Origin: Nitrospiria bacterium
GTDB lineage: Bacteria; Nitrospirota; Nitrospiria; SBBL01; JAADHI01
Assembly: GCA_046756925.1 (NCBI GenBank)
Contig: JBHHXH010000002.1
Span: forward strand, 2,990-66,989
Direction: 5' to 3'
Length of the DNA: 64,000 bases
Part shown: positions 5,691 to 35,126 of the stretch, piece after piece
Layout of the letters: each line of letters opens with the position of its first letter
Position numbering within the stretch: position 1 is the first letter of the stretch
The notes under the pieces: generated by a model
Told to the model about the DNA's origin: nothing
What the model saw: only the letters and a program-made list of their open reading frames with translations
Databases searched by the model: none
Translations under genes and position numbers: made by a program

Positions 5691-6211
5691 TGGGAGAACA
5701 AAGCTCTCTGACGCTTTATATTGACATCTGAAAGGTGGCGTCGAGAAGAACGCGGTTGAACATCGCCTGATGGCCTGATCTGCTTTAAAAGTTTCATTAC
5801 CCAGATTTTGTAGAGCAGGAAAGCGCTCTAGTGTGTGGAGAAAAGAGATTTGTTGCGATTAGAGAAGATGGGATGATTCTGCTAAGAACGCGGGTTGGTC
5901 CGCTCATCTTCGCTGCAGCAATGATCGTTGACACAGAATGATTGAACACGCCTAAAGTTAATGAAGTTTTCAGGCTATTAAACAATCAATCCTGCGATCC
6001 AAACCACGGTCATGAGCACAGATAACCCGGTTAAAGTTGTGATCGTGGCCCATTTTTTATCTTGACCCATTCTAAACCCACCTTTCATACAAGCCATACA
6101 TGATGATACTTAAATTATAACGCAAAATAGGGTGAATGATGTTTGCTGACATACAAAAATCAGTTTTCCCGAATTGTCTTCCCTCAGCCGATAGCCCAGA
6201 GACGAGGCGCA

Positions 6212-6427
6212 TTAGAGGGACACTCTCATAGGAGAAAGGAGTCGATTTTTGTGCGTCCTTCTTGGATGAACCACCTCCTCTATGCCGAAATGATATAAAA
6301 TGGAGTGTTGTAGATTTTGAAAGGCTTCTTCTTCGTTTCGCCCCCACCTGCAACAACCCGGCATGCTGGGAATGGTCGCTTTAAAACCGCCTTCATGTCC
6401 CTCTTCAAGGATCACTTTGAATTTCAT
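6212..6427 (-). CDS. HicB-like (UPF0150) small protein, no HicA partner seen
   Basis: The N-terminus MKFKVILEEGHEGGFKATIPSMPGCCRWGRNEEEAFQNLQHSI matches the HicB/UPF0150 pattern (E-x-GG-[FY]-x-A-x-x-P-x-x-PGC...G-x-x-x-EEA). RBS AGGAGGG lies upstream of the ATG. Confidence 0.5.
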   Translation of the reverse strand: MKFKVILEEGHEGGFKATIPSMPGCCRWGRNEEEAFQNLQHSILYHFGIEEVVHPRRTHKNRLLSPMRVSL

Positions 6428-6483
6428 TTTGAAACCCTCCTAATTTAATCTAATGATGTTTTGTTACATCCTCTATATTTGGG

Positions 6484-6513
6484 ATTATATTCCCAAATAT
6501 AGGCCACCGTCAA
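6484..6513 (-). promoter_or_regulatory. Sigma70-type promoter with embedded palindromic operator (copy 1)
   Basis: The minus strand reads TTGACG (6513-6508), an 18-nt spacer, then TATAAT (6489-6484). The -10 sits at the centre of the palindrome ATATTTGGGA-ATATAA-TCCCAAATAT (6475-6500). Confidence 0.5.
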
Positions 6514-6864
6514 CCTAAAATAAGTAGTAATCACAATAAAAAATAACTCAAGGGCTGAGGGCGTGTTTTCGACAGGAATAAGATTGACGTCAGTAAAGAA
6601 ACACACGACCATACCTTGAATCGACGAATAGAAGGCTTCTTATCAAATGCTTACATTATTCCCATCGTGAAAATGATAGCGAGGTGCTCTAAATTCAGAG
6701 GGGATGAGGCCTGAAGATGTTGATCAGCATCCATCCTACAAATCAAGCTTTACCAGGGAAAAATCGTATATCGTGGGTCTTGGACCGGAAATGGGTCCTT
6801 TTTCATTGAGAGAAGGTACTTTGGGAAGGAGTTTTTTTTTGATTCCTTGGTTTAATCTTATGGT

Positions 6865-7935
6865 TTAATCTTGTGGAGAAGCGTGCATCGAACGTCTGAT
6901 TTGACCGCGAAATATTGAGAGCATGAGTTGGAAAGCGGCAAAAAACGTCAGGGTCGTCACACCCTCTAGGACCGAAAACCCTTGTAAGCCAGGGGCCTCT
7001 TCGATAAGCAGGCGAAGAGGTGGAATAACCATGAGATAGCGCTCTAACCAAATTCCAAAAAGAATGATCCCTAAAATGGGTTTCAAAGATCGTTCACCTT
7101 TTCGATCTAGAAGGAGCGCACCGAAGGGAACGAGAAAGAGAGCGCAGACCATTAATCCGAAAGGCCAGACGAAAGGCCCCGAAAACCGTATATAAAGCGG
7201 TTTTACTTCTTCAGGGATGTTGGCATACCATATCGTGATAAATTGAGACCATCCGAGGTAGATCCATATAATTGAAAAAACCAGCAGTAATTTCCGCATG
7301 TTTTCCCATGTCTGCGTCTGCAACAATCGATGTCGGTTTCCCTCAATCATCAACATCAGTACGGCTAGCCCGGCATAGAGATTTCCAAACCAAAAATAGG
7401 GGGCGAACAAGGTGTTGTGCCAGCCCGGCGAAAGATTCATGCCGAAATCCCAACCGATCAGGGTCTGATGCAGTACAAAGAGCGCCAACAGGCAACAGAG
7501 ACGTCCAGGACGTTGGGTCTTGTCTCTCAGGTGGCTGGATAGGGTGTAGCATGCGAAGCCGTAATATAGGATCATCGCAACAAGGTGCCTGGTAAAAAAA
7601 ACGGGCGAAGTAAACCAAAAGGAATGACTCGGTGTTCGGACCCAATGGAACAGGTCGGACTGTCCCTGAACGAGTCCGAGCATGGCCATGACCGCGATGG
7701 GCGCATAGGCAAGAGTGATCATCCCAGACGGGACCAGATAAGACGATGCCCACCGAGCCCCCAGGAGCCAAAGAAACACGACGATCGCCAAGAGGCCCTG
7801 TGTGACTCCGAACAGGTAGACAAAATTGGCTGCATAAACGCCCCAGGGAACGCCGATGAAGGCCCATGCGAGCAGTCCGCATAAGAGCAAGGCGGCGAAA
7901 ACAGTTGTTTTGGCCGAAGCCGGTTTCACCATCAC
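6865..7935 (-). CDS. actF: Alternative complex III subunit ActF-like integral membrane protein
   Basis: 356-aa polytopic membrane protein, last gene of the act operon. Its start (GTG 7935 or ATG 7932) overlaps the actDE stop. Confidence 0.7.
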   Translation of the reverse strand: MMVKPASAKTTVFAALLLCGLLAWAFIGVPWGVYAANFVYLFGVTQGLLAIVVFLWLLGARWASSYLVPSGMITLAYAPIAVMAMLGLVQGQSDLFHWVRTPSHSFWFTSPVFFTRHLVAMILYYGFACYTLSSHLRDKTQRPGRLCCLLALFVLHQTLIGWDFGMNLSPGWHNTLFAPYFWFGNLYAGLAVLMLMIEGNRHRLLQTQTWENMRKLLLVFSIIWIYLGWSQFITIWYANIPEEVKPLYIRFSGPFVWPFGLMVCALFLVPFGALLLDRKGERSLKPILGIILFGIWLERYLMVIPPLRLLIEEAPGLQGFSVLEGVTTLTFFAAFQLMLSIFRGQIRRSMHASPQD

Positions 7936-9428
7936 TCCCGGCCCAATTGGTGCTTCACAAAATTGACGATATGCCAGCGTTCGGTTGCATCGAGGGCATC
8001 TCGGTATGGCGGCATGAAATGTTTCTTGCCGCTGCCGTGTGCGTGCGCATGTCCATCTTCCCCGTCTTCTCCGTGCCCGTGGCCTTCAGCGTAGCATTCG
8101 GGGCCTTCCGAGGCATGGGCGTGTTCGTCTTCGTGCGCGTGTTCGTGTGCCTCTTCATTCTCATGCGCGTGGTCCATTGAGGCGACCTCATCATGGTCAT
8201 GCGAATCTTCGTGTTCATGTGTTATCTCGGCCGTTTCCATCGGTTCCGACTCGTCATGCGGGTGGTCATGATCGTCCTCGTGCCCATTTCGATGTTCGCC
8301 TTCCGTAGAGGCCGTCTCGTCGTGTCGATGCGTATCCGCTTCATGTTCGTCTTCGAGAGCATCCTCATGTTCGTGGTCAGCACCCTCCTCATCATGTTGA
8401 TGCTCCCTTTCATCGTCGTCGTGGGTCGCTTCATCGTCATGCGCCTCATGGGACATCTCTTCCAGCGGTGGTCGGGGACGGGCGATTTCCGAGGCGAAGT
8501 TGGCGCCATTGGTAATAGCGACAAAAATGCATCCACCGGGCTGCTCTCGAAACCCTTCTTTGGTAAAGTCGGGAAATTCTCCGATCTTCTCTGCGATGAT
8601 GCCGTCGCCTTTTCCGCTGGAGCCGTGGCAGACCACGCAAAAATCTTGGAAGAGTTTTTTTCCGATCCGGAGTGAGTCATCACTGACGGGAACCGGGTTT
8701 TCGATCCACGGCCCTTCATCCTTCGAGCGTATTTCGAGGGCCTTGCCTTGCCGGGGAACAATGGACGGCGGAAGAGACACCAGTTCTTCTTGAGGACTGC
8801 GCGTTGTCTGATCGACCATGTCTTGAGACCAGGGCCAGGCGAGAACGAGAGAAGGCCATAAGAGCAGCATCGCGGCGCCGAGCCACAAACGAGCGATTTG
8901 TTTTTCAACACGATCGGCGCCGCAGCGTTTTAATAGCGTTGCGGCCGATGAGAGCTCGCTCGAAGTTCCCCGGACGCCGATGGCGAAGCGGTCGCTGCTG
9001 ACGCGCTGCGGGACGAAGCGTTTTCGGTCGGAGGAGAGCAGAGCGAAATAGAGAAAGCCTAAAACGGTGGACAGCAGCGAGAAGAGCACCATGATCTCGA
9101 ACGAGATGATGCCGATGGCGGGTAGGGATAAAATCGGCATCCCACCGGTTTGAATGGGATAGAGCACGGCGGTGCCTCCGCTCAGGAGAAGCCCTGCGGT
9201 CAAGCCGACAATTGCCCCAAACAAAGTAAATTTACCGATGGGACTATTTCCTTGGGAGACGGGGAGTCCCAATTCACCGGGGTCCATTGGAGAATAAAGG
9301 GTAATGTCTTCATGCCCCGACGCGGCGAGTGCCTGTAACGCCGCTCGTGTTTCCGCGGGAGAGGGAAAGGTTCCGAGAATGCCGTGATCGCGGGTAGTTT
9401 GATTCGTATTTTTCTTGTCGTTCATCAT
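7932..9428 (-). CDS. actDE: Fused ActD (DUF3341)-ActE (monoheme cytochrome c) subunit with a His/Asp/Glu-rich insertion
   Basis: Start ATGATG at 9428 overlaps the actC stop and follows AAGGAGG; I rejected the 147-aa upstream part of ORF 7932..9869 because it overlaps actC. The N-terminal part is GILGTFPSPAETRAALQAL plus 2 TM helices (ActD-like). The C-terminal part has CVVCH and ...ITNG...MPPYRDALDATERWHIVNFV (cytochrome c). Confidence 0.75.
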   Translation of the reverse strand: MMNDKKNTNQTTRDHGILGTFPSPAETRAALQALAASGHEDITLYSPMDPGELGLPVSQGNSPIGKFTLFGAIVGLTAGLLLSGGTAVLYPIQTGGMPILSLPAIGIISFEIMVLFSLLSTVLGFLYFALLSSDRKRFVPQRVSSDRFAIGVRGTSSELSSAATLLKRCGADRVEKQIARLWLGAAMLLLWPSLVLAWPWSQDMVDQTTRSPQEELVSLPPSIVPRQGKALEIRSKDEGPWIENPVPVSDDSLRIGKKLFQDFCVVCHGSSGKGDGIIAEKIGEFPDFTKEGFREQPGGCIFVAITNGANFASEIARPRPPLEEMSHEAHDDEATHDDDEREHQHDEEGADHEHEDALEDEHEADTHRHDETASTEGEHRNGHEDDHDHPHDESEPMETAEITHEHEDSHDHDEVASMDHAHENEEAHEHAHEDEHAHASEGPECYAEGHGHGEDGEDGHAHAHGSGKKHFMPPYRDALDATERWHIVNFVKHQLGRE

Positions 9429-10771
9429 GCCTCCTTTTGCTGCAAGGGGAGCATCTCTTTGATTTCGTACATGGAAACCGAAGGAAAAAGTTTCGTAAAG
9501 ATCAAAAAGTTCAAGCTGAAGAGTGCCAGCGTGCCGATTAATATGGTGGCTTCGACGGCGGACATGCTGTATGAACCCCAGGTGAATGCGGCATCGGGAG
9601 CCGATAGGCTGGGGATGAGGATGAGATAACGCTCGAACCAGAGCCCAACATTGATCAAGATCGTGATGATCAAAAGCTTCCGCGGCGAGCGGCGTATTGT
9701 CTTCGAGATGAGAAAGAGCGGGAGCAATCCGATCGAGAAGATCATCAACCAGAACATCCAGGCGAAGCGGCCGCTGATCTTCGATTGCATGACGGACAAT
9801 TCGACTACATCTTCCGTCTGCCAAAGGACGAAGGTTTCGACAAACATCATATAGTTCCAGAGGAGGCAAAGGACAAAAAGAAAAATCGCTAGTTTTTCGA
9901 GGTGCTCGACCCGGATATAGGCCTCGAAGCGATAGTACTTCCGAATGAGCACCGAAATGGTGATCACGGCCGAGACACCCGAGTAAATAGCGCCCAGGAC
10001 AAAGGCCGGCGCAAAAATGGTGCTGTGAAGTCCGTGGACATTCGAGACGGCAAAATCCCAGGAGACAATGCTATGGACGGACACCATCAGGGGGATGAGA
10101 AAAGAGGCCATTAAAACGTAGGCCCGTCGGAGATGCTGCCACTGTGCCGTCTCCCCCTTCCATCCGAACGACAGGCAGGTATAGAGTTGCTTCCGCCAGC
10201 CTTGCGTGTGGTCCCGCGCCGTCGCCAGATCGGGGATCATCCCGAGAAACAGAAACAAAGCGCTCCCGATCAAATAGGTGTTGATCGCGATGCTGTCCCA
10301 GGTGAGCGGCGAACGCATATTGGGCCACAGCTCCCGTTGGTTGGGATAGGGCGGAAACATCCAGTAGAAATACCAGCCGCGTCCGAGGTGGATCAAGGGG
10401 AGCAGGCCGGCGTTGACGAGAGAAAAGAGGGTCATGACCTCCGCGCTTCGGTAGATCGGTTTTCGCCATTCGCTGTGTGTGAGGTGGAGTACCGCGGAAA
10501 GCAAGGTGCCGGCATGACTCAAACCGATCCAGAAAATGAAAGTGGCGATATACCCGCCCCAAAAGACGGGGTTGTTCAAACCGGTGACCCCAAGACCCGA
10601 ACGCACCTGATACGCATAAGCCGCCACGGCGGAGATGACCACGAGAACCAGGCCCGCAACCAGCATCCAATAGCGCGCCGAGGTATGGGTCAGGCTTCGG
10701 ATGACGGCCTGATCGAGCTTCGCGCAAGCCGCCATTCCGGATGTTCGATCGGTGGTCTCCGGTGCTTCCAT
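9425..10771 (-). CDS. actC: Alternative complex III quinol-interacting membrane subunit ActC (NrfD/PsrC family)
   Basis: 448-aa polytopic protein of NrfD-like appearance, placed directly after the Mo-pterin-like/FeS subunit. Tight spacing on both sides. Confidence 0.85.
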   Translation of the reverse strand: MEAPETTDRTSGMAACAKLDQAVIRSLTHTSARYWMLVAGLVLVVISAVAAYAYQVRSGLGVTGLNNPVFWGGYIATFIFWIGLSHAGTLLSAVLHLTHSEWRKPIYRSAEVMTLFSLVNAGLLPLIHLGRGWYFYWMFPPYPNQRELWPNMRSPLTWDSIAINTYLIGSALFLFLGMIPDLATARDHTQGWRKQLYTCLSFGWKGETAQWQHLRRAYVLMASFLIPLMVSVHSIVSWDFAVSNVHGLHSTIFAPAFVLGAIYSGVSAVITISVLIRKYYRFEAYIRVEHLEKLAIFLFVLCLLWNYMMFVETFVLWQTEDVVELSVMQSKISGRFAWMFWLMIFSIGLLPLFLISKTIRRSPRKLLIITILINVGLWFERYLILIPSLSAPDAAFTWGSYSMSAVEATILIGTLALFSLNFLIFTKLFPSVSMYEIKEMLPLQQKEA

Positions 10772-10772
10772 T

Positions 10773-13700
10773 TTATGTATCGATGATCCGTTTCAAATAA
10801 ATCACCGCCGATTCGGTGTTGAGGTGTTCCAAGGCGCGGTAACGCCTTGGATCGCGCGCGGCCTTCGAAACCGCACTTTGATGATCCAGCAATGAGCCGA
10901 AGTGCATGGCGTCGGCCGGACAGGCCTGCACACAGGCGGGCTGAATTTCACCGTCTTTTACTTTCCTGTTTTCCAGCTTTGCGTCTTCCTTGCCCTTGCG
11001 AATGCGTTGCACGCAGAAGGTGCATTTTTCCATCACCCCGGCATCCCTGACCGAGATTTCCGGGCTTAATTGGCGATCGAGCGGCGTCGGCCATTCGGGT
11101 TGGACCCAATTAAAGTTCCGGACCTTGTAAGGACAGTTGACGGCGCAATAGCGTGTCCCGACGCAACGATTGTAGACTTGGGCATTGAGCCCATCCGGGG
11201 TATGGTAAGTGGCGTAGACGGGACAAACCGGTTCACAGGGAGCGTTGCCGCAGTGTTGGCAAAGCATGGGGAGAAAGCGTGCGCTTGGTGTCGGATCGGG
11301 CTGCCATGTCCGCTGTATTTGAATCCAGTCCATGCTCCGTTGGTTTCGGATGCCCGCTTCCCCCACGATCGGTATATTGTTTTCGGCATGACAGGCGACA
11401 TTGCAGGCTCCGCAACCGGTGCAGCGGTCCAGATCGATCACCATGCCCCAGCGGTAGTCCTCCGGGCCGTTGTGTCGCTCGGGTTGGAGATATTTTGCCA
11501 ATAGGCCGCTCAGCCCAGGCAGGGCGATGCCTTCACGGTTGGGTAGGGCTTCGATCGGCTGAAGGGAGGTCCCTTTTTTTAAGCGCTCCGCCTCGGCCGC
11601 GTCGAGCGTGAGGCTCATGTCATGACCGCCTTGATCGCTTGCGCCTTCCGTTTTTGCGAATGTGGTCTTCCGTCCTGTTTTTTTAATCGATACGCGCGAA
11701 GCCGCCCAAGCAAGGGTCCCGGTGGCCGCCTCGATCAGCGGTGATACGACCTTCAGCGGATTGACCCCTCTCCCGGTTGCATATCGTCCATAGGCCGTAT
11801 GTCCTTGTCCGATGGGCATGGCAAGGGTATCGGCTCGAATGCCGGGCCTTGGATAGGCCGGTGCTTCCAAGGAGCCTTCAGGGGTCTCGATCTGAAGAAG
11901 ATCGCCTTCTTGAATCCCGAGCCGACGGGCGACGCTGGAATGGATCTCCACCCAGCTGCCCCATGTAATCGTCGTCATCGGATCGGGCGCCTCCTGAAGC
12001 CAGGGCTGGTTGGCGCCGCGTCCGTCGTGGAGGGTGATCGATGGATAGAGTTGGAGGTGAAAGGAGTCTTTATGGGGTTCGGCGTTCCGGCTTTTTCCTT
12101 GAATGATATTGTTAATAAGTTTCAAATCGGTGTTTTTTAAAACCATGGCATTGCTGGGTTTTTCGTCCCATCGCCCACCATTTTTTAATAGCGTTGTCCA
12201 AAAGGGTCGGAAGTCGATACCGAAATCCAAACGTTCCTCCAAACCGGAAACGAAAAACCGCTCTTCCCAGGCTTCTTTTAAAAAGGATTCGAAATTGTCC
12301 CAGGGAAAACGTTCGGAAACCCTCCCTCCAAGCCCTTCGGCAAGCGAAATGAACACATCCCCCAAGGGACGTGTATCGTACAAGGGAGGCACGACGGGCT
12401 GCATGAGGCCGACAGTCCGGTGTCCGGACGCCACCTCGGGGATGTAGTCTCCAAAGGATTCAAGCGGGGTATGGAGCGGGAAGATGAGATCGGCCATGCG
12501 GTTGGTTTCATCGATGAATGAAGCAAAACCCACGATAAAAGGTAGTTTTTCGAGATCGGGCTGGAGTTCCAGCGAGGCGGGCGCATGGTAGAGGAGGTTT
12601 GCATCATGTAAAAAAAGGGCCTGAATCTTTCCTTCCTGAATCTCTTGCCCGAGGCCCATTATTCGTTTCCAATCGAGGCGCTTTTCCCCAAAGGTTTCGT
12701 AGGGCGTATAAAATCGGATGCCCCCTTTGCGATTCGTATTTCCAACGACGGTGTTGAGTATATTGATCGCAACGGCATGAAAGAGGCCGTCCGGACGCGC
12801 CATCGCCGCATCGCCGCATAGGGCGAGGCTTACGGGCGCCGTCGCGAATTCCTTCGCCAATGCGCCGATGACTTCCTGAGGAATATCGCAGCGCTGAGAG
12901 ACGGTCTCGATGCTATATTCGTTAAGAAGCCCGCGCCATGCCTTCGCGTCCTGAAGGCCCAATCGTTCGGCGTGCCATCCTTCGTTGAGGATGATCCGGG
13001 AGAGACCCAAGGCCAGGACGCCCTCACTGCCCGGACGGAGGGCAATCCAGCGATCGGCATTGGCGCCGGTGAGGGAAAGACGGGGCTCGCATTGAACGAA
13101 TTTCCCGCGGCGGGGTCTGGCCGGCGCTTGGCGAAAATCGCCGTAGGCTTTGCTGTAGCCGACTGGAGAGAGCCATCGCTCTAAGAAATTGGCCCCGAAA
13201 GAAAGCAGGTAATCCGTATGGGCGATATCATAGTGCGGCAGGGATTCGACCCCAAAGACAAGCTTGTTGGCGGATTTCAATACCGCGTAATCCAAAAATT
13301 CGTAAGTATAAACATGCGGGCTGCCGTAACCTGCCATGAAATTCGAGACCAGTTTGCTCAGATGCCCCCTGATCGGGCTGCCGATCAGAAAAAGGCGGTC
13401 CGTCATCTGGGCGTCTTGAAGCTTCTTCAGTTCTTTTACGACGATCCGCGTTGCCTGCTCCCATGAAATTTCTTCCCATTGGTCCGCTCCGCGAGGCCCC
13501 ACCCGTTTCAAGGGCCTTTTGACGCGATCCGGATTATAGAGCACCTGCAGGGACGCTTCCCCCATGGCGCAAAGCTTTCCTTGGTTGATGGGAGAAAGGG
13601 GATTTCCCTCAATCTTTTTGGCATGTCCATCCAGCATTCTCACGGAAATCCCGCAGCCGGAAGGGCATTGTCGGCAAACACTGGAATACCAGGTTGCCAT

Positions 13701-13826
13701 GCCGGGTGCGATATCGTCGGGCGGCACGACAAAAGGGATCAGGTGCGCTACGGGCGGCTCGACTTGGTTGCATGCCCCTAAGACGCCAGTGGTTCCGATG
13801 AGTTTTAAAAAGTTTCGACGGTCCAT
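10773..13826 (-). CDS. actB: Alternative complex III subunit ActB (molybdopterin-oxidoreductase-like domain fused to 4Fe-4S ferredoxin domain)
   Basis: Start taken at MDRRNFLKLIG (twin-arginine signal) at 13826. It has an N-terminal CRQCPSGCG cluster motif, and the C-terminal third has multiple CxxCxxCxxxCP ferredoxin motifs (CTGCGACNVAC, CQHCGNAPCEPVCP, CVGTRYCAVNCP, CTFC...CVQACP). Confidence 0.85.
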   Translation of the reverse strand: MDRRNFLKLIGTTGVLGACNQVEPPVAHLIPFVVPPDDIAPGMATWYSSVCRQCPSGCGISVRMLDGHAKKIEGNPLSPINQGKLCAMGEASLQVLYNPDRVKRPLKRVGPRGADQWEEISWEQATRIVVKELKKLQDAQMTDRLFLIGSPIRGHLSKLVSNFMAGYGSPHVYTYEFLDYAVLKSANKLVFGVESLPHYDIAHTDYLLSFGANFLERWLSPVGYSKAYGDFRQAPARPRRGKFVQCEPRLSLTGANADRWIALRPGSEGVLALGLSRIILNEGWHAERLGLQDAKAWRGLLNEYSIETVSQRCDIPQEVIGALAKEFATAPVSLALCGDAAMARPDGLFHAVAINILNTVVGNTNRKGGIRFYTPYETFGEKRLDWKRIMGLGQEIQEGKIQALFLHDANLLYHAPASLELQPDLEKLPFIVGFASFIDETNRMADLIFPLHTPLESFGDYIPEVASGHRTVGLMQPVVPPLYDTRPLGDVFISLAEGLGGRVSERFPWDNFESFLKEAWEERFFVSGLEERLDFGIDFRPFWTTLLKNGGRWDEKPSNAMVLKNTDLKLINNIIQGKSRNAEPHKDSFHLQLYPSITLHDGRGANQPWLQEAPDPMTTITWGSWVEIHSSVARRLGIQEGDLLQIETPEGSLEAPAYPRPGIRADTLAMPIGQGHTAYGRYATGRGVNPLKVVSPLIEAATGTLAWAASRVSIKKTGRKTTFAKTEGASDQGGHDMSLTLDAAEAERLKKGTSLQPIEALPNREGIALPGLSGLLAKYLQPERHNGPEDYRWGMVIDLDRCTGCGACNVACHAENNIPIVGEAGIRNQRSMDWIQIQRTWQPDPTPSARFLPMLCQHCGNAPCEPVCPVYATYHTPDGLNAQVYNRCVGTRYCAVNCPYKVRNFNWVQPEWPTPLDRQLSPEISVRDAGVMEKCTFCVQRIRKGKEDAKLENRKVKDGEIQPACVQACPADAMHFGSLLDHQSAVSKAARDPRRYRALEHLNTESAVIYLKRIIDT

Positions 13827-13854
13827 TCGGTTTTTATCTCTGTGAAACGAAGAT

Positions 13855-14376
13855 TCATTTGTGGCACACCCAGCAATCGATGGAAGCATCCATCTTTCGA
13901 TGGCATTTGAGACACCAGCCCATTTCCAGTGAGCTGACCTGTTTCACCTGCTCCATCTCGGATACATCGCCATGGCATTGTTCGCAAGCCAGATCGGCAT
14001 TGAGATGCATGCGATGTGAAAAATAGACGAAATCCGGAAGGTTGTAGACTTTTTTCCAGGGAATGGGTTGGCGATTATCCCAGTAATCGAGCAATTTTTG
14101 GACTTCAGGGTGGTCCAGGGCGATCATTTCATGACAGCCGATGCATTTTTGTACGCTCGGTACCCCCGCAACGGAAGACTTCTTCGCATAAATATGACAA
14201 TAAAGACAGGCGATTTCACTTTCTTGGGCATGAGTTTTATGACTGAAATCGATCGGCTGCAGGGGTGAGGATCGGGTCGAAAAGAAAAATGCATAGGCGA
14301 GTGCTGCGCTGAGGGTGATGACTAAGGTCGGAATAAAAAGCGAGAGCAATCGGGGAGAGATCTTTGTTTTCCGCAA
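13855..14376 (-). CDS. actA: Alternative complex III pentaheme cytochrome c subunit ActA
   Basis: 173 aa with an N-terminal TM anchor. Five CxxCH motifs: CLYCH, CIGCH, CEQCH, CLKCH, CWVCH. TTG start at 14376 with AGGGA upstream. Confidence 0.85.
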   Translation of the reverse strand: MRKTKISPRLLSLFIPTLVITLSAALAYAFFFSTRSSPLQPIDFSHKTHAQESEIACLYCHIYAKKSSVAGVPSVQKCIGCHEMIALDHPEVQKLLDYWDNRQPIPWKKVYNLPDFVYFSHRMHLNADLACEQCHGDVSEMEQVKQVSSLEMGWCLKCHRKMDASIDCWVCHK

Positions 14377-15773: not shown

Positions 15774-15825
15774 TTGACAGGGGGAAGACATCCTTGTATA
15801 TTTATATCCGACCAAAATAATCGGA
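15774..15825 (+). promoter_or_regulatory. isc operon promoter plus candidate IscR operator
   Basis: TTGACA (15774-15779), a 17-nt spacer, then TATATT (15797-15802). This is followed by the inverted repeat TCCGA-N9-TCGGA (15807-15825), 27 nt before the iscR ATG. Confidence 0.5.
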
Positions 15826-15851
15826 GACTTAAAAGGTCGCCTATACCTCTG

Positions 15852-16283
15852 ATGTTAAAACTGACAAAAAAGACGGATTATGCCTTAATGGCCATCAACT
15901 ATATGTCCTATCGAAAAGATTCCTTTGTCGCCAATACGCGGAATATTTCGGAAGCGTATAACATTCCCTTGGAATTACTTGCCAAGATACTGCAGAAGCT
16001 GGCAAAAAAAGGCATGATCGTCAGCCAAAACGGACCAAAGGGTGGTTACAGCCTGGCGAAAGATCCAAGTCTGATCACCTTGGGCGAAGTGATTCAGATC
16101 ATCGAAGGGCCTATACAGATTGTTCGTTGTGTTGAAGGAGACACCACATGCTCCCAAACGGAACAGTGTACGATTCGAAGCCCACTCCGAAGGATTGAAC
16201 AAAAAATTGTGTCATATTTACACAGCATCACCATTGACAAGTTTTGCCAAGAGGCAATAGAAGATGAAATCGCCGTCAACTGA
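15852..16283 (+). CDS. iscR: Rrf2-family Fe-S cluster regulator IscR
   Basis: Start at MLKLTKKTDYALMAINYM (typical Rrf2 N-terminus). Three clustered Cys (CVEGDTTCSQTEQC) could ligate a cluster. First gene of the isc operon. Confidence 0.8.
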   Translation: MLKLTKKTDYALMAINYMSYRKDSFVANTRNISEAYNIPLELLAKILQKLAKKGMIVSQNGPKGGYSLAKDPSLITLGEVIQIIEGPIQIVRCVEGDTTCSQTEQCTIRSPLRRIEQKIVSYLHSITIDKFCQEAIEDEIAVN

Positions 16284-16310
16284 CGGAACGAAACCAAGGT
16301 AGGAAATAAT

Positions 16311-17528
16311 ATGCTCAAACTTCCAATATTTATGGATAATCATTCAACGACGCCGGTCGACCCTCGGGTCTTAGAGGCCATGCTTCCCTATTTCTCCGAA
16401 AAATTCGGAAATGCGGCCAGCCGTAACCATTCTTTTGGGTGGGAGGGGGAAAAGGCGGTTGCCTATGCCCGCGAACAAATCGCTCAACTGGTCCACTGTC
16501 ATCCAAAGGAAATTATTTTTACGAGCGGCGCGACGGAATCCGACAACCTGGCCTTAAAAGGTGTGGCCGAGATGTACCGAGAAAAAGGAAGTCATATTAT
16601 TACGGTCGTTACGGAACATAAGGCCGTTCTCGATGCAGCGAAGCACTTAGAAAAAGAAGGCGCAAAGGTGACCTATCTACCGGTTGACCGGGATGGCTTG
16701 ATCGACCCTCAATCCGTCAAGGCGTCCATTACCGACAAAACGATCCTAATCTCTATCATGCTGGCCAATAACGAAATCGGGGTGATCCAGCCCATTGCGG
16801 AGATCGGACAAATTGCAAAGGAAGAGGGTATTTTGCTGCATTGCGACGCCACGCAGGGGGTGGGAAAAATTCCTGTCAATGTTGAAACGATGGGAATCGA
16901 CCTGATGTCATTCTCGGCGCATAAGATATACGGACCCAAAGGCGTCGGCGGGCTCTATGTCCGAAAAAAGAATCCTAGGGTGCGATTGGCGCCCATGTTC
17001 GACGGCGGTGGCCATGAGCGCGGCATGCGTTCCGGAACGCTCAATGTACCCGGTATCGTCGGTCTTGGCACGGCCTGCGAAATCTGTGAAAAAGAAATGG
17101 CCGAAGAATCGATTCGCGCGACCCGCTTGCGCTTGAAACTCCGGGATCATATATTAAAAGAGCTGGATGAGGTTTACGTGAACGGCCATCGGGAAAATCG
17201 TCTCCCGCAGAATTTGAATATGAGCTTTGCGTATGTTGAGGGGGAATCGTTGTTGATGGGGCTGAATGAAATCGCGCTCTCTTCCGGCTCGGCTTGTACC
17301 ACCGCGACCTTGGAACCCTCTTATGTTCTGCGTGCATTGGGCGTTGGAAGCGATCTGGCGCATTCTTCCATCCGATTCGGTCTCGGAAGGTTTAACACCG
17401 AGGAAGAAGTTGATTATGTCGGCAAAAAAATTGTGGAAACGGTGAAAAGGCTTCGGGAGATGTCGCCCCTTTATGAAATGGCAAAAGAAGGTATCGATCT
17501 CAAGAGTGTCCAGTGGACACAACATTAA
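16311..17528 (+). CDS. iscS: Cysteine desulfurase IscS
   Basis: PLP-lysine motif [11 protein letters not shown] and active-site loop SSGSACTT. 405 aa. Confidence 0.9.
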
Positions 17529-17539
17529 GGAGGTAGTCA

Positions 17540-17923
17540 ATGTCGTACAGCAATAAGGTGATCGATCATTACAACAATCCTCGAAATGTCGGGAGCCTCG
17601 ACAAGCAAGATAAGGAAGTCGGGACCGGCGTCGTCGGCGCACCGGAGTGTGGGGATGTGATGAAGCTCCAATTGAAGATTTCCGAAGGGGTCATCGAGGA
17701 CGCCCGCTTTAAAACCTTCGGTTGTGGCAGCGCCATCGCAAGTTCCAGCCTGGCGACGGAGTGGGTGAAAGGAAAGACAATCGATGAGGCATTTAAAATT
17801 AAGAACACGGAAATCGTGAATGAGTTAAATCTGCCTCCCGTAAAGATTCACTGTTCGGTCTTGGCGGAGGATGCGATCAAAGCCGCGATTGCGGATTACA
17901 AGAAAAAGAATGGAGAAGGATAA
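17540..17923 (+). CDS. iscU: Fe-S cluster scaffold IscU
   Basis: Three conserved Cys contexts (GAPECGDVMKL, FGCGSAIASSS, KIHCSVLAEDA) and the LPPVK Hsc-binding motif. Confidence 0.92.
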   Translation: MSYSNKVIDHYNNPRNVGSLDKQDKEVGTGVVGAPECGDVMKLQLKISEGVIEDARFKTFGCGSAIASSSLATEWVKGKTIDEAFKIKNTEIVNELNLPPVKIHCSVLAEDAIKAAIADYKKKNGEG

Positions 17924-17926
17924 AGA

Positions 17927-18286
17927 GTGGGGCAGATGGAAACAAATATCGGCAATGCGCAAACGGTTCGTTTGACATCCGCGGCGGTTGAAGCCGTAAA
18001 GGGGATGATTGTGAGAAAAAAATTAGGGAACGTGGCTTTGAGGTTGGGCGTCGAAGGAGGCGGTTGTTCGGGCCTGACCTATCAACTTAAATTCGATACC
18101 GAGGTGAGTCCACATGACGAAAGCTATGAGTTCGAAGGGCTGCGGGTGCTGGTCGACAAAAAAAGCCTGCTCTACTTAACGGGCATTACCCTCGATTTCA
18201 GCAAGGACTTGGTTGGAGGCGGTTTTAAGTTTATCAATCCGAACGCCAAGCAGAGCTGTGGTTGTGGAGAATCGTTCTCCGCCTGA
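17927..18286 (+). CDS. iscA: A-type Fe-S carrier IscA
   Basis: HesB/IscA family, with C-terminal CGCGESF and an upstream GGGCSG motif. The start is ambiguous (GTG 17927 or ATG 17936). Confidence 0.85.
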   Translation: MGQMETNIGNAQTVRLTSAAVEAVKGMIVRKKLGNVALRLGVEGGGCSGLTYQLKFDTEVSPHDESYEFEGLRVLVDKKSLLYLTGITLDFSKDLVGGGFKFINPNAKQSCGCGESFSA

Positions 18287-18293
18287 GGCTGCC

Positions 18294-19031
18294 ATGAATG
18301 TGATTCCTGAAAAAACAGGCCCCGAGAGGGGCCGTTCTTTTTTGGACCAGCAACCCCAAAACCGCCCGTGCTGGAGTTGTGAATACAAATCGGACGATCT
18401 CTATAATTGTTCTCAGTGCGACAAACTGCAGGAATTTCTTGAGGAGACGGATTACTTCAACTGGTTTGGTTTCGGCTATTTTCTTTCGATCGATCAAGAC
18501 GCCCTGGAAAAACAGTACCACCTCCTAAGCCGGAAATTTCATCCGGACTTTCACCAAAAAACATCACCGGAGGAACAAGCCATCAGCCTTGAAAATACCG
18601 CGCATTTAACCAAGGCCTATCGCATCTTAAAGGACCGCAAAAAAAGAATGGCATACTTGATCGAATTACTTGTAGGCGCGCAGGCGCCGCCGACAAACGT
18701 GGCGGACGATCTTTTTGAAGAAATATTGGAGATTCAAGAACGGATGGAAGCCATGCAAGAGATGGATCGATCTCAAAATGACCGCAAAGAGGCGCTGCTG
18801 TCGTCCTTAAAGATCGATCTGGAAAACATGGAAAGCCACCGGAAGGAAATAGAAGAAAGCCTGCAGTCCCTGTCATTAAAATGGGACTGCTTGGAAGAAA
18901 AGAGGGGAGCAGGGCCTTTAGGAGATTCGCAAATACTATATTTGCAAGAAATAAAAACCTTGCTGGCCAAAGACACCTATCTCGATCGTATCATCCAGGA
19001 AATACGCAGATCGATCGAAGGAGGATCTTAA
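18294..19031 (+). CDS. hscB: Co-chaperone HscB with N-terminal tetracysteine module
   Basis: ATG at 18294, just after the iscA stop. J-domain HPD (KFHPDFH). N-terminal CWSC-x10-CSQC. I rejected the ORF-track start at 18213 because it overlaps iscA. Confidence 0.8.
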   Translation: MNVIPEKTGPERGRSFLDQQPQNRPCWSCEYKSDDLYNCSQCDKLQEFLEETDYFNWFGFGYFLSIDQDALEKQYHLLSRKFHPDFHQKTSPEEQAISLENTAHLTKAYRILKDRKKRMAYLIELLVGAQAPPTNVADDLFEEILEIQERMEAMQEMDRSQNDRKEALLSSLKIDLENMESHRKEIEESLQSLSLKWDCLEEKRGAGPLGDSQILYLQEIKTLLAKDTYLDRIIQEIRRSIEGGS

Positions 19032-20864
19032 ATGTCTTATGTGATCGGAATAGACCTCGGGACAACCAACAGTCTGGTTGCCGTTATGGATGGAGACACC
19101 CCCCGTGTCATTAAAGATCGCTTCGGAAAGACCTCTCTCCCATCGGTTGTCTATATTCCCTCATCGGGCGCCCCTCCAGTTGTCGTCGGAGATCCGGCCA
19201 AGAAACATCTGGTGACGGATTCGGATCGGACAATATATTCCATTAAACGGTTTATGGGGAAAGGCCGGGACGAAATTCAAGAAGATACGAAAAGAATCCC
19301 TTACAAATTGCTTGGCGATTCAAATGAATCCGTCCGCATTCAAGTGGGCGAACGGCTGTATACCCCTCCGGAAATTTCGGCGTTTATTCTTCGTGAGTTG
19401 AAGGAACGGGCCGAAGCCGACCTGAAAGAATCGGTGTCTCAAGCAGTGATCACGGTGCCCGCTTATTTTAACGACAGTCAAAGACAGGCGACAAAAGATG
19501 CGGGAAAGATCTCTGGGCTTGAAGTGCTTCGCATATTGAATGAACCCACAGCCGCATCCCTGGCCTATGGCCTACAAAAATCCAAAGAAGGGATCATCGC
19601 GGTATATGATCTCGGCGGCGGGACATTCGATATTTCAATCTTAAAAATCAAAGAGGGCATATTTGAAGTCCTTGCCACCAATGGCGATACGCATTTAGGC
19701 GGCGATGATTTTGATCAACGAATCGTGACCCTATTCTGCGAAGAGATTCGCCGAGAATATAAGATCGATCTTTTTGAATATCCTGAAGTGTTACAGGACA
19801 TTCGTCTGAAGGCCGAGCAAGCGAAGTCATTGCTCTCTACACAGGCCTCTTACGAGATTGAGATGGTGCTACCGATGAAAAAGGGAACCTACCGGCGTGA
19901 AATGACCAAAAAAGAATTCGAGGAAAACATTCAAGATTTGGTGGACCGTACGACCGATCCATGCCGCATGGCGCTTGTCGATGCGGGCTTGAAACCGGCG
20001 GATGTGAATGAAGTCGTACTGGTCGGAGGATCGACGCGTATCCCTTATATCCAGGAAACGGTGGCCAAGCTCTTTCATAAAACGCCTCACAGCGAACTCG
20101 ATCCGGAGAAGGTCGTCGCCTTGGGGGCGGCGATTCAAGCCAATATTCTCTCCGGGGGCATTACCAATCTGCTGCTTTTGGACGTCACCCCATTATCGCT
20201 TGGCATTGAAACCATGGGGGGGGTCGTGGGCCGCTTGATTCCGAGGAATACAACCATCCCGACCAGCGGGAAGGAAACCTTTTCAACCTTTGTAGATGGT
20301 CAGCAATCTGTATCCATTCATGTCGTGCAGGGAGAAAGAGAACTGGTGGCCGATTGCCGCAGCTTGGCAAAATTTAATCTGACCGGAATCGATCCCATGC
20401 CGGCGGGCATGCCTCGGATTGAGGTCACGTTTTTAATCGATGCAAACGGGATACTGAATGTGAAGGCCACAGACCTTCGGAGCGGCAAAGCGCAATCCAT
20501 CGAAGTGAAGCCGACCTACGGCCTCACGGAGACGGAAACCGAGGCAATGATCTCGGATTCGATGGAACATGCAAAAGAAGACATGGAAAAGCGCTTATTG
20601 ATCGAGCTAAAAAATGAAGCCGAAACCGTGATCAGACACACGGAAAAGGGGCTTTCGCAAGGATCGGACCTGATGGACAAGACCGAACGGAAAATGATCG
20701 AGTCGTCTCTTTACGATTTAAAGATCGCCCTTGCGAAAAATGACCGGAATATGATTCGCGAAATACTCAATCGTCTCGATGAAGTCACGCTTCCGCTCGC
20801 GGAAAAATTGATGAACCGCACCGTGAAAGAAGCGCTTCAAGATAAAGAGCTGACCGATCTTTAG
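19032..20864 (+). CDS. hscA: Fe-S cluster chaperone HscA (Hsp70 family)
   Basis: [23 protein letters not shown], 610 aa, directly downstream of hscB. Confidence 0.92.
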
Positions 20865-20885
20865 AAACCTGTCCGGAAAGCCGAC

Positions 20886-21218
20886 ATGCCGAAGATTACA
20901 TTCCTAAAGGATGATCCGAACCGAAATATCACCATAGAATGCAAAACAGGGGAGACCATTCTCGATATTGCGCTTAAGAACGATATCGAGTTGGAACACA
21001 ATTGCGGCGGCAGTTGCGCCTGCACCACCTGCCATGTGATCGTTCGGGGAGGGTTGGACCATCTTTCCGATATGGAAGAAGACGAAGAAGATCGTCTGGA
21101 TACGGCCGAAGGGCTTACCCTCACCTCACGGCTCGGATGTCAGGCGGTCGTCGAGGGGGATTGTGTCGTCGAAATCCCAAAAAACGTGCAACCCTTCCGG
21201 AAGGCGGAACAACACTAA
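20886..21218 (+). CDS. fdx: [2Fe-2S] ferredoxin Fdx (adrenodoxin type)
   Basis: CGGSCACTTCH plus the downstream SRLGCQ Cys. 110 aa, in the isc context. Confidence 0.9.
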   Translation: MPKITFLKDDPNRNITIECKTGETILDIALKNDIELEHNCGGSCACTTCHVIVRGGLDHLSDMEEDEEDRLDTAEGLTLTSRLGCQAVVEGDCVVEIPKNVQPFRKAEQH

Positions 21219-22358: not shown

Positions 22359-23324
22359 TTGAAGACCACAAAAAAAATAAACATCCAATTTTTACTGGTA
22401 ATCGCCATGATAGTCACAATTCTCCTATGTCCTCGCTGGCGTAAAAAAGCCCATGCCAGCCATGAACAAATCGATATCGCCTCTTTTTGGGGAGAAATAG
22501 AAACCGGTTTTCTCTACGACGATAATATTTTTCAAGTAAAGGATGGAAAGGAATCGGATATGATTTGGGAGTCCAACCTATCCTTGTCCTATCTTCCGAA
22601 GGAGATCAAATGGAGCGCCCGAGCAATATTTGATCGATATCGAAAAAACAACGAGTTGAATTATGTCTACTATGAAGTCGGTATGGAACGCCCATTTGGT
22701 CAGAGAAATTATGGAAGTGTCGTCCTTCATCTGTCTCCTTCCGCCTTGCTCGACAAGCAAGATCCGAATAGAGAACCCTTCTCGTTAGAATCTTACGGGT
22801 TCAGCGCCACGGTCGACCGGAACACCGATCGAATAGGCAATATTGGCATAAACTTTTCTTACACGCGATTGGATTACGGGGCTCCTTTTAATGCAAAAGA
22901 TACGAATATATTAAGCCTCAGTCCGTCTCTTTTTTATCGGATGGGAGACTACTGGCGTTTTTTGGCCGAGGTAACCTACGAAAAGGGAGACGCGCAGGGA
23001 GGATTTATCTTGACCGATATTCCGGATGACATCTCCTATACAGCGCTCGCGGCTTCCTTCAAGATTGTTTATCAGGTCAGGGAAAATACACGGTTGCGGT
23101 TTCGCTACAAGATTCGCAAAAAACGATTTAGCACGGAAGGGGCCGATGCTTTTCATAAGGATAGGAACGATGCCAACCATGCTTTGTATGCCGAGATACA
23201 ATACAATCCGGTCGAAAAGGTAAGCGTTTTTAGCCGCATAGACCGCTTGTGGCGGAATTCAAACCTTGATTTTGTCGCTTTTAACGAGACACGGTGGATG
23301 CTGTCCGTGGCATATCGGTTCTAA
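22359..23324 (+). CDS. Outer-membrane beta-barrel protein (family uncertain, possibly BBP2/OmpL-like)
   Basis: TTG start with GAGGGAG RBS. Signal peptide ending AHA. Alternating amphipathic strands, and a C-terminal ...LSVAYRF with terminal Phe typical of BAM substrates. Confidence 0.6.
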   Translation: MKTTKKINIQFLLVIAMIVTILLCPRWRKKAHASHEQIDIASFWGEIETGFLYDDNIFQVKDGKESDMIWESNLSLSYLPKEIKWSARAIFDRYRKNNELNYVYYEVGMERPFGQRNYGSVVLHLSPSALLDKQDPNREPFSLESYGFSATVDRNTDRIGNIGINFSYTRLDYGAPFNAKDTNILSLSPSLFYRMGDYWRFLAEVTYEKGDAQGGFILTDIPDDISYTALAASFKIVYQVRENTRLRFRYKIRKKRFSTEGADAFHKDRNDANHALYAEIQYNPVEKVSVFSRIDRLWRNSNLDFVAFNETRWMLSVAYRF

Positions 23325-23515
23325 TTGATTATATGGCATCGATGCATTTGGAATTGTTAAACGAGATGCCCACTGCCCAGTTAGAAATAAGAAAACGTGA
23401 GAGGAGGCGCCGTATCCTCATCAATATCGAAAATAACAGCGGCGAAAGAACGAAGATCAACTGAAATGTTTCGGTTGAGGTTAAACAACTTTTTTATTAT
23501 TTGGAGGGTCAAAAA

Positions 23516-24118
23516 ATGGACGCAAGAAAATATAGACGGATATTAATCGGAGGAATTGCATTTTCTTTCTTGTTCGCGTTGGTGTCCCATGCGGCCGGCC
23601 TTGACGACCGTGTCACAGGCGTGAAACTGCGTGGCGACGGCACCGTCGATGATGCGCCGGGAAGACATATCCAAGACGATGATATTGGTCCGGATGGACT
23701 CAAGCGCCGGGGGGATGGATCGATCGACGATACCCAACCCAATCGACCTGGCGGGATGAATGACGTAAAGCGCCGTGGCGACGGCACCATCGATGACCAT
23801 TCACGGGACCGGCATCGTGATGGGGATGACCACGCCAGAATGAGAGAGGACGATCGTAACGACAGGTCCCATCGAGGCAGAGGACGCGGACGCGGTCGTG
23901 GCCGAGGACGTGGGCGCGGGGGCGATCACGATGTAAGAGTTTCCATGGAGGAGCATCGGGGACGAGGCCGTGATCATGACCGTATGGAAGATCGTGTCGC
24001 CGCCCGGAGGGACGACCACCGGGGTCGCGGCCGGGACGATCACCGGACCCGCGAAAGAGACGACGACCGGAATCGCGGACGAGATGACGACCGAGGCCGT
24101 GGAAGAGACGATAACTAA
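23516..24118 (+). CDS. Secreted low-complexity Arg/Asp/Gly-rich repeat protein
   Basis: ATG at 23516 after GGAGGG. Signal peptide ILIGGIAFSFLFALVSHAAG. Three repeats [KR][LR]RGDG[TS][VI]DD, then a run of RG dipeptides (HRGRGRGRGRGRGRGG) and an RD/RG-rich tail to the stop. Confidence 0.6.
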   Translation: MDARKYRRILIGGIAFSFLFALVSHAAGLDDRVTGVKLRGDGTVDDAPGRHIQDDDIGPDGLKRRGDGSIDDTQPNRPGGMNDVKRRGDGTIDDHSRDRHRDGDDHARMREDDRNDRSHRGRGRGRGRGRGRGRGGDHDVRVSMEEHRGRGRDHDRMEDRVAARRDDHRGRGRDDHRTRERDDDRNRGRDDDRGRGRDDN

Positions 24119-24240: not shown

Positions 24241-24518
24241 GGGAGTCTCAAAAATTATTTCCTAAAACGATTATGGATGCTTTGCGAAAAGGATTTCACG
24301 GATAGACAACAGAATCGGTTGAGCATGTGTGTTGCCTACCGATTCATATTCATGTTGAGAAGGCAAGATTATTGCGAAACGATTCGAATGTAGGTTATAT
24401 AAAAAGTAGAGTGTTTTTTTACGCAAGAGGATCGATAAATGCCGTCATCGAGGCTCAGGTAATCAATAGGCATATTGGAGCTTCCGAATTTTATCGTGCG
24501 AGGAAAGGAGGTATTGTC

Positions 24519-26892: not shown

Positions 26893-26958
26893 AAAATCTC
26901 CTTGCTTAAAGCTTATAAATGGAATCAAGAAAAAAACGTTTTCAACTTTTGTTTCGAA

Positions 26959-27345
26959 TTAGATCGAAAAATCGAGGCCCTGCGCGCCGTCTTCGATCGT
27001 TTCATCGAGCGCGATCTTCATAACCTTCGTCCGGATGGTGAAGGTCTCTTTCTTCCCCTTGATATCGACCGCTTCCCAAGAGATAAAATCGCGTGTTTTG
27101 TGCACATGCGGCGCCAGCTTCGCCCCCTTTGATCCGAATTGATACGAAAGATGAAACTCGATCGCCTCTTCAGGACAGGCTTTGACGCAGGGCAGACAAT
27201 CCCAGCAATCTTCCGGATATTTCAAGTGGGCCTTGTTGACGGAATGATCTTTTACGATCAGGTCGCCGGGGCACATCCGTACACAAGGGGGTTGTCTTGA
27301 ATTGTAACAGCCGTTGCATTTTTCCGGGTCCACCCATACAGGCAT
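26959..27345 (-). CDS. aprB: Adenylylsulfate (APS) reductase beta subunit AprB
   Basis: MPVWVDPEKCNGCYNSRQPPCVRMCPGDLI and CWDCLPCVKACP (two 4Fe-4S motifs) parallel AprB of Archaeoglobus and other sulfate reducers. 128 aa. Confidence 0.85.
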   Translation of the reverse strand: MPVWVDPEKCNGCYNSRQPPCVRMCPGDLIVKDHSVNKAHLKYPEDCWDCLPCVKACPEEAIEFHLSYQFGSKGAKLAPHVHKTRDFISWEAVDIKGKKETFTIRTKVMKIALDETIEDGAQGLDFSI

Positions 27346-27362
27346 CGCTCAATTTCCTTTCA

Positions 27363-29081: not shown

Positions 29082-29154
29082 TGTCCTCACCCTAAAAAAT
29101 GTCGTATCCGATTCGCTTTCACACTTGTTTTGTCGATGGCGCTTGGAAAGCGCT

Positions 29155-35057: not shown

Positions 35058-35120
35058 TTGACATTGTGGGATTAGATTGTATAATTTGCCGAAAAGTGTC
35101 ATAAAGTGGGGGAGAGTGGG
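35058..35120 (+). promoter_or_regulatory. dcw (Pmra-like) promoter and MraZ-box direct repeats
   Basis: TTGACA (35058-35063), a 16-nt spacer, then TATAAT (35080-35085). Then GTGTC (35096), GTGGG (35106) and GTGGG (35116) at exact 10-bp phasing, just before mraZ. Confidence 0.55.
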
Positions 35121-35126
35121 AAGCCT

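Follow-up and report, generated by a model that had tools for sequence, protein, structure and literature searches.

A long histidine- and acid-rich insertion before the axial methionine of the fused ActD-ActE subunit of alternative complex III in a Nitrospirota clade

The act operon and its fused ActD-ActE subunit

The window analysed here is a 64,000-nucleotide stretch of DNA from a Nitrospiria bacterium (GenBank assembly GCA_046756925.1, contig JBHHXH010000002.1, positions 2,990 to 66,989 of the forward strand). On its minus strand lies an operon for alternative complex III (ACIII), and the fourth gene of the operon, actDE (7932..9428), encodes the ActD and ActE subunits as one polypeptide in which the cytochrome of the ActE part is interrupted by a long His/Asp/Glu-rich insertion. 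The translation of 498 amino acids (aa) is identical to NCBI MFQ5596509.1, which is annotated as 'quinol:electron acceptor oxidoreductase subunit ActD [Nitrospiria bacterium]'. An earlier reading of the same DNA from its letters alone, referred to below as the sequence-only reading, had pointed out both the fusion and the insertion.

The operon is co-directional and translationally coupled through ATGA and GTGA overlaps: the TGA stop of actC overlaps the ATG of actDE, and the GTG start of actF overlaps the actDE stop. ActA (13855..14376), a 173-aa pentaheme cytochrome c with five CxxCH motifs, is matched by the Pfam Cytochrome_C7/c3 and the NCBIfam QrcA-like models. ActB (10773..13889, 1038 aa) combines molybdopterin-like and 4Fe-4S parts in one fused chain (Pfam Molybdopterin, Molybdop_Fe4S4 and Fer4) and carries the twin-arginine motif RRNFLK; its best Protein Data Bank (PDB) matches are the ActB chains of the four solved ACIII structures (6f0k_B, 6lod_B, 8k9e_B and 6btm_B; E 1e-94 to 4e-105). 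ActC (9425..10771, 448 aa) is an NrfD-like quinol-binding membrane subunit (PF03916 NrfD, E 2e-24). The last gene (6865..7935, 356 aa) encodes an ActF-like second NrfD-type membrane subunit; a Pfam search with this open reading frame (ORF) gave no match, and phmmer matched it to the ActC and ActF chains 6f0k_C/F, 6btm_C/F and 8k9e_C/F (E 7e-15 to 7e-9). The same gene order, with the same fused architecture of ActD-ActE, is found on four contigs from related organisms (L001, L003, L162 and L163). By gene content and sequence matches this is a complete actABC(DE)F operon encoding a bona fide ACIII, for which oxidoreductase activity from quinol to cytochrome c or a high-potential iron-sulfur protein (HiPIP) is predicted. 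It differs from the actABCDE module described for Nitrospirales, which has a split ActB and no ActF (PMC12342949), in that ActB is fused and ActF is present.

The solved structures used for comparison are those of Rhodothermus marinus (6F0K), Flavobacterium johnsoniae (6BTM), Roseiflexus castenholzii (6LOD) and Chloroflexus aurantiacus (8K9E). The ActD domain of the fused protein (residues 16-175, 8904..9383) matches PF11821 with E 3.4e-28 and 98.9 bits against a cut-off of 25.7. It contains two transmembrane helices by hydropathy (residues about 64-90 and 96-133), is modelled by AlphaFold2 (AF2) with a predicted local distance difference test (pLDDT) score of 80-95, and matches 8k9e_D, 6lod_D, 6btm_D and 6f0k_D in Foldseek. 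A third hydrophobic helix (residues 178-199, 8832..8897) appears as a hydropathy peak, and AF2 models a helix at 184-196. This helix would carry the ActE part across the membrane to the periplasm. Attachment of c-type heme takes place in the periplasm; since the third helix follows the two-helix hairpin of ActD, and since heme attachment is periplasmic, the ActE part is predicted to be periplasmic as well.

The N-terminal part of the ActE fold spans residues 241-311 (8496..8708), as defined by alignment to the solved ActE chains, and Pfam cytochrome c models match residues 253-286. It includes the heme motif CVVCH (residues 264-268, 8625-8639) and the ITNG motif (residues 305-308, 8505-8516). 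The fold resumes far downstream at Met472 (8013..8015), the predicted sixth (axial) heme ligand, which is part of FMPPY and of the clade-specific motif GKKHFMPP, and ends with a C-terminal helix (residues 481-495, ATERWHIVNFVKHQL, 7944..7988) whose RW pair is invariant in 80 sequences. When the insert is deleted, the sequence aligns through both the CxxCH motif and the Met loop to residues 83-182 of 8k9e_E, 86-185 of 6f0k_E, 69-155 of 6btm_E and 62-152 of 6lod_E. Met472 falls on the Met of NMPAY in R. marinus ActE, where the corresponding stretch reads ISHGVRNMPAY, and Cys264, Cys267, His268, Gly308 and Met472 are invariant among 25 aligned relatives. In two AF2 runs the pLDDT is 75-97 for residues about 236-310 and 82-96 for residues 471-495. 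The top Foldseek matches of the model are the ActD and ActE chains of the four solved structures, together with cytochrome c552; the template modelling (TM) scores, at 0.33-0.52 of the target, are held to modest values by the long coil. On these alignments and models, CVVCH and MPPY belong to one class I cytochrome c fold with predicted His/Met ligation, and the insert interrupts it.

The protein thus has the ActD Pfam domain in common with the solved complexes, and the CxxCH motif, axial Met and C-terminal helix of its ActE part align with theirs end to end. It is unlike them in three respects: an extra transmembrane helix links ActD and ActE into a single chain; the distance from the (I/V)T.G motif to the Met is 163 residues instead of about 3-13; and there are two additional cysteines. 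Fusion of ActD to ActE without an insert occurs in other lineages as well (e.g., P0012 and P0021). The identification of the gene as a fused ActD-ActE of ACIII and the placement of the insertion within a single cytochrome fold, both proposed in the sequence-only reading, are borne out by the Pfam models, the complete operon, the Foldseek matches and the insert-deleted alignment.

The insert and its occurrence

The insertion occupies residues 309-471 (8016..8504), between Gly308 and Met472, and its His/Asp/Glu-rich core extends over residues 322-470 (8019-8465). Its 163 residues include 32 His, 22 Asp, 36 Glu and only 6-8 hydrophobic residues, giving a net charge of about -48 at pH 7 and an isoelectric point of 4.6. 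The arrangement of the histidines is not that of a random sequence of the same composition: HxH occurs 14 times versus 6.2 expected from shuffles, and HH is absent versus 6.3 expected. The AF2 pLDDT of the insert is about 40-50 in two runs, with no secondary structure, while both flanks are modelled with confidence. These measurements agree closely with the sequence-only reading, which had counted by hand about 32 His and about 57 Asp plus Glu (58 by our count) with almost no hydrophobic residues, had delimited the insertion to 8025-8470 and CVVCH to about 8622-8639, had given the Met codon exactly (8013-8015) and had expected a disordered loop, as is now predicted. That reading had also set the loop beside the face of the heme through which ACIII exchanges electrons. 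Of this, the sequence bears out only that the loop leaves the fold immediately ahead of the axial Met ligand.

Two long ORFs overlap the insert in other frames, 8193-8675 on the plus strand (160 aa) and 8222-8911 on the minus strand (229 aa). They are not genes; they are shadows of a GAN/CAY-biased low-complexity coding sequence in which stop codons do not arise. Apart from such shadow frames of actDE, no ORF of comparable His density was found in about 150 kb of DNA from these organisms.

An insert of 101-174 aa is present in frame, with the same flanks, in ten distinct Nitrospirota sequences that are 41-61% identical overall, and in all ten the reading frame resumes after it at GKKHFMPP...RWHIVNY. 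The set consists of P0001-P0009 with their cluster mates and the truncated L004, and was drawn from NCBI, JGI, ENA and Logan assemblies; those pairs of members for which DNA is available share about 45-50% amino-acid identity. The spacing from CxxCH to the Met is 208 residues here and 150-208 in the Nitrospirota clade, versus 48-56 in 153 relatives that lack the insert, a difference that chance would not produce and that is in line with the earlier statement that cytochromes of this type usually have only a few residues between ITNG and the Met. Of these relatives 76 come from species-representative genomes, mostly of Gammaproteobacteria including Gallionella and Sideroxydans, and 77 are metagenomic. 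The metagenome scan yielded no further insert-bearing member, all 77 scorable relatives being spaced 48-55. A full-profile search of 1.84 billion cluster representatives (50% identity) returned only two matches over the full length, with E about 1e-222 to 1e-228; the match ranked after them (E 1e-56) lacks the insert, and none of the other top 148 matches of this search has a His-rich stretch. A search with the insert-deleted sequence gave a single match, P0011 (182 aa), in which ActE is a protein by itself. Since the word index had evidently picked up few candidates in that search, the distribution was assessed by the hidden Markov model (HMM) search of the representatives and by two contig scans. 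Among HMM matches of 370-550 aa other inserts were considered: P0067 and P0107 proved to be multi-domain proteins, and none of the inserts resembles the His-rich one. In two further fused ActD-ActE proteins, P0013 and P0014, an insertion of ~45 residues that is not His-rich (…SVPSLA…EAYLREF…) lies between CxxCH and (T)xG; more than one loop of the ActE fold can thus take up an insertion.

The insert is thus genuine, in frame and lineage-specific, and is confined to a small uncultured Nitrospirota clade. It is also apparently undescribed, the complex itself being already known. In the papers searched, alternative complex III and 'histidine-rich' do not occur together, and no other ActE examined has such a module; the same had been suspected at the outset, when no described ACIII of this kind could be named.

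Within the clade the flanks are 69-79% identical across members, and the alignment of the insert contains 36% gaps. In every insert, nevertheless, His makes up 17-22% of the residues and the net charge lies between -27 and -51. Relative to shuffled sequences, HxH is enriched 2-3 fold in 9/9 complete members (p<=0.008) and HH is depleted in 9/9 (0-1 versus 3-6 expected). Since HxH is enriched and HH almost absent, the histidines stand in an (HX)n arrangement. Constraint falls on the pattern of the insert rather than on its sequence. In one subclade (P0006, P0008 and P0009) a 26-aa unit (…EDEHSHGDPMFAEDDH…) is present in 2-4 copies, from which it follows that the loop evolves by repeat expansion.

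Two cysteines accompany the insert. Cys300, in the motif PGGC (8529..8531), is a Cys in all insert-bearing sequences; in the 76 genome-derived relatives without the insert the same position is W, Y, F or H. The second, Cys445 (8094-8096), lies in the conserved anchor motif ECYAEGHGH (residues 444-452, 8073..8099). Each insert contains exactly one Cys, 19-41 residues before the Met and in the context C-x2-3-[G/E]-H-x-H, followed by a G/H/D-rich stretch and then by the invariant GKKHFMPP. The ActE parts of the 76 relatives contain the two heme cysteines only, the Cys300/Cys445 pair being absent. In the AF2 model the pLDDT rises locally at residues 441-448, around Cys445.

The nearest ActE sequences outside the clade (31-41% identity) are those of Gallionella, Sideroxydans and other Gammaproteobacteria, which share the N-terminal AWPWSQDM. 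Unlike the Nitrospirota protein, they have a CxxCH-to-Met spacing of 48-56, no His-rich segment and an aromatic residue at position 300, and their ActD and ActE are mostly encoded by separate genes.

Surroundings of the operon and host organisms

A gene of the DUF3108 family (PF11306, 14773-15594, minus strand) is directly adjacent to actA on its upstream side and has the same orientation. In L001 a DUF3108 gene (708-1541) also lies upstream of actA on the same strand, separated from it by one 209-aa ORF, and this gene may be a conserved neighbour of the ACIII operon of the clade. L001, which belongs to OFTM336, has in addition a gene for a DCC1-like thiol-disulfide oxidoreductase (10415-10780) immediately after actF. 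In view of the two clade-specific cysteines of ActE this gene may deserve attention, though the window lacks it at the corresponding place. On L162, the contig encoding P0009, a HicB-like antitoxin ORF (8158-8355) lies between actB and actC, and a phage-type integrase gene (12594-13586) lies just past actF. A search of the surroundings of the operon in the window, L001, L003, L162 and L163 for a redox partner or a metal-handling gene yielded only DUF3108, DCC1-like oxidoreductase, housekeeping and 2-oxoacid:ferredoxin oxidoreductase genes. The last of these are found on L163, the contig encoding P0003, at 6059-9793 downstream of actF, as a multi-subunit set with CO_dh-like, POR_N/PFOR_II, TPP_enzyme_C, POR and Fer4 domains. 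This set suggests autotrophy by the reductive tricarboxylic acid (rTCA) cycle.

The isoleucyl-tRNA synthetase (IleRS) of the organism is at most 70% identical to any database entry and 64-65% identical to that of Ca. Manganitrophaceae. Two members of the clade, OFTM244 and OFTM336, carry the prefix given to metagenome-assembled genomes (MAGs) of the Oslofjord subsea tunnel, where iron and manganese are oxidised by biofilms (PMC10732223); judging by the shared prefix only, both probably belong to that data set. As to ecology, these observations are no more than suggestive. A gene cluster at 25735-29601 (minus strand) encodes an ATP sulfurylase, a small 4Fe-4S protein and a flavoprotein with flavin adenine dinucleotide (FAD), resembling sat-aprB-aprA, beside an Rrf2 regulator. 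A sat/aprA set is among the shared genes of Ca. Manganitrophaceae (PMC9040806).

Other parts of the window are noted briefly. The opposite strand immediately upstream of the ACIII genes (15774-21218, plus) carries genes for an Rrf2 regulator and an IscS-like class-V aminotransferase, both checked against Pfam, followed by ORFs that by eye resemble IscU, IscA, HscB, HscA and ferredoxin. A 205-aa ORF (23501-24118, plus) has a signal-like N-terminal hydrophobic segment and then an extreme Arg/Asp/Gly/His low-complexity region with an (RG)7 run and repeated 'RRGDG(S/T)(I/V)DD' units, and has no Pfam match. Its neighbours are an ORF for a putative porin-like beta-barrel (22359-23324) on one side and, on the other, a gene (24327-25658) for an OmpA-family protein that has a long coiled coil. 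Further along, at 35106-53305 (plus), lies a division and cell-wall (dcw) cluster, complete by eye from mraZ-like to ftsZ-like ORFs.

Possible functions of the loop

We propose that the insert is a lineage-specific, disordered and polyanionic (HX)n loop that stands before the axial Met and binds divalent transition metals. The anatomical part of this statement, an in-frame and lineage-specific insertion in the ActE half of the fused subunit, before the axial Met, is as good as certain. The statement as a whole, metal binding included, is the likeliest of the readings considered, though we would stop a little short of calling it probable. The loop would act as a multivalent module of low to moderate affinity for divalent transition metals and would hold metal ions at the cytochrome through which electrons enter or leave ACIII. 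Its C-terminal end would be pinned to the cytochrome core via Cys300 and Cys445, either by a periplasmic disulfide or by a Cys/His metal site that also uses the adjacent GHxH. Metal binding may then change the conformation of the Met-ligand loop, and hence the potential or the accessibility of the heme. A function is argued from the conservation of the insert, the ordered His pattern and the co-evolved cysteines. The functions put forward in the sequence-only reading, namely the tethering of a metal, proton buffering, gating that depends on metal or pH, and the docking of a partner, are candidates to which composition, the conserved (HX)n pattern and the predicted disorder lend indirect support only.

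Transporters of the ZIP and CDF families have (HX)n loops comparable to the insert. Among periplasmic proteins, the His-rich loop of PA4063 is disordered without metal and contributes to zinc binding (PMC8561739), and the same is documented for the His-rich loop of ZnuA (references in PMC3872050). The ZnuA and PA4063 loops resemble the insert in being periplasmic, disordered without metal, rich in His and acidic residues, and built on alternating HX. The loops of ZnuA, PA4063 and the ZIP/CDF proteins differ from it in their typical length of ~10-40 residues and in their position beside a defined high-affinity metal site of a transport protein; the insert has 100-170 residues, belongs to a heme protein of a respiratory complex and has no sequence homology to them.

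Several points weigh against a metal-binding loop. Composition alone proves neither metal binding in vivo nor which metal would be bound; low-complexity loops are common, and the mechanism is drawn by analogy. The insert alone has no Pfam match (E<=10) and no PDB sequence match (E<=1), and is by sequence an analogue, not a member, of the known metal-binding families. No metal-handling genes linked to the operon were found in the window, L001, L003, L162 or L163. The Cys300/Cys445 pair may be either a disulfide or a metal site. Furthermore, the HxH pattern can arise mechanically, by slippage of hexanucleotide units that encode a His-X pair; a weak period-6 array detected by Tandem Repeats Finder (TRF) lies at 8120-8148, and the expansion of the 26-aa repeat in one subclade can fit such an origin.

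Slippage leads to a different account of the whole insert, in which it is a tolerated low-complexity expansion in a surface loop that accepts insertions, harmless and with no specific function. The variable length (101-174 aa), the 36% gaps, the 2-4 copies of the 26-aa unit in P0006, P0008 and P0009 and the want of any structure or domain match all suit this account. It is hard to reconcile, however, with the retention of the insert in every member, without losses, at overall identities down to 41%, with the same composition and HxH/HH statistics in sequences that cannot be aligned, or with the co-evolution of two cysteines and GKKHFMPP with the insert and the replacement of a conserved aromatic residue at position 300; we consider it unlikely. 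Still further from the evidence is an artefact, i.e., a misassembled low-complexity region or a frameshift that joins two genes. Biased composition and long shadow ORFs in other frames are what such an error might produce, but in NCBI, JGI, ENA and Logan assemblies, made independently, the reading frame always runs through the insert and the conserved sequence on either side is the same. TRF, run on 7900-8700, reports two weak short arrays only and no sizeable tandem repeat in the DNA, and a simple-repeat artefact was rejected on that ground. The likelihood of an artefact is negligible, and the concern about misassembly raised with the sequence-only reading can be laid aside.

Acidic modules are known from the bc1 complex, namely the hinge protein QCR6/UQCRH and an acidic domain of about 150 aa in cytochrome c1 of Paracoccus denitrificans, and have been proposed to capture a basic redox partner electrostatically. 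Like the insert they are strongly acidic, of low complexity, probably disordered and up to about 150 residues long, and they are carried by the terminal c-type cytochrome of a quinol:cytochrome c oxidoreductase. They are unlike it in that they are not known to be His-rich, in being N-terminal or separate subunits instead of an insertion ahead of the Met ligand, and in belonging to an unrelated enzyme family. The analogy is functional only. By this analogy the insert could be a docking or tethering arm, a polyanionic disordered loop that brings to the heme of ActE a basic periplasmic partner (a cytochrome c, HiPIP or cupredoxin, or an oxidase domain). The net charge of -27 to -51 in all members, the predicted disorder and the position in the terminal cytochrome of a quinol:cytochrome c oxidoreductase are favourable. 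The heme of R. marinus ActE (+165 mV) is the final one of the ACIII wire and donates directly to the caa3 oxidase (PMC5928083). Charge alone, however, needs neither 17-22% His nor (HX)n order nor avoidance of HH; the known acidic modules are rich in Glu, Asp and Ala and are not known to be so in His; and the genes beside the operon in the window, L001, L003, L162 and L163 include neither a redox partner nor a candidate basic protein. A docking arm is accordingly doubtful, to about the same degree as a tolerated expansion.

A more specific idea is that the loop is a substrate or sensor site for Fe(II) or Mn(II) in the periplasm, at the heme of ActE in an ACIII of the type found in iron-oxidising bacteria. 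Electrons from the metal would pass directly to this heme and enter reverse electron transport, making the complex the metal:quinone oxidoreductase of a lithoautotroph, or the metal, according to its availability, would switch the axial ligation or potential of the heme. By general coordination chemistry, His and carboxylates are fitting ligands for Fe(II) and Mn(II). The AWPWSQDM motif is shared with the closest ActE relatives, those of Gallionella, Sideroxydans and other Gammaproteobacteria, and the ACIII of Sideroxydans ES-1 is strongly induced by Fe(II) and has been proposed to act in reverse electron transport (PMC8788666). The IleRS identity to Ca. Manganitrophaceae, the two members that are linked by prefix only to the iron- and manganese-oxidising tunnel biofilms, and the rTCA-type 2-oxoacid:ferredoxin oxidoreductase genes beside the operon in L163 point the same way. 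This support is circumstantial throughout. In current models, neutrophilic bacteria oxidise Fe(II) at the outer membrane, which keeps minerals from forming in the periplasm (PMC8788666); the potential of the Mn(II)/Mn(III) couple lies far above that of a typical ActE heme, which in R. marinus is +165 mV (PMC5928083); and the available DNA showed neither Cyc2 nor porin-cytochrome genes. A substrate or sensor site is thus improbable, well below the docking arm in likelihood.

The role of ActE in ACIII is itself unclear. When ActE is deleted in Flavobacterium, electron transfer to the aa3 oxidase persists and growth slows (PMC8552683). A long loop and two cysteines at the Met-ligand loop point to a lineage-specific function at the heme, and the candidate functions are metal binding, metal-dependent control of electron flow and the capture of a partner. 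The host organisms are unclassified Nitrospiria related to manganese- and nitrite-oxidising lineages, and some of them appear to come from iron- and manganese-oxidising biofilms. Their ACIII most closely resembles the one of neutrophilic iron oxidisers, where driving reverse electron transport is the supposed role of the complex. Because the module is small and suited to expression by itself, the hypotheses on its function are directly testable. Even if the insert were only a tolerated expansion, it would show that a class I cytochrome can accommodate a very large disordered stretch in the loop preceding its Met ligand.

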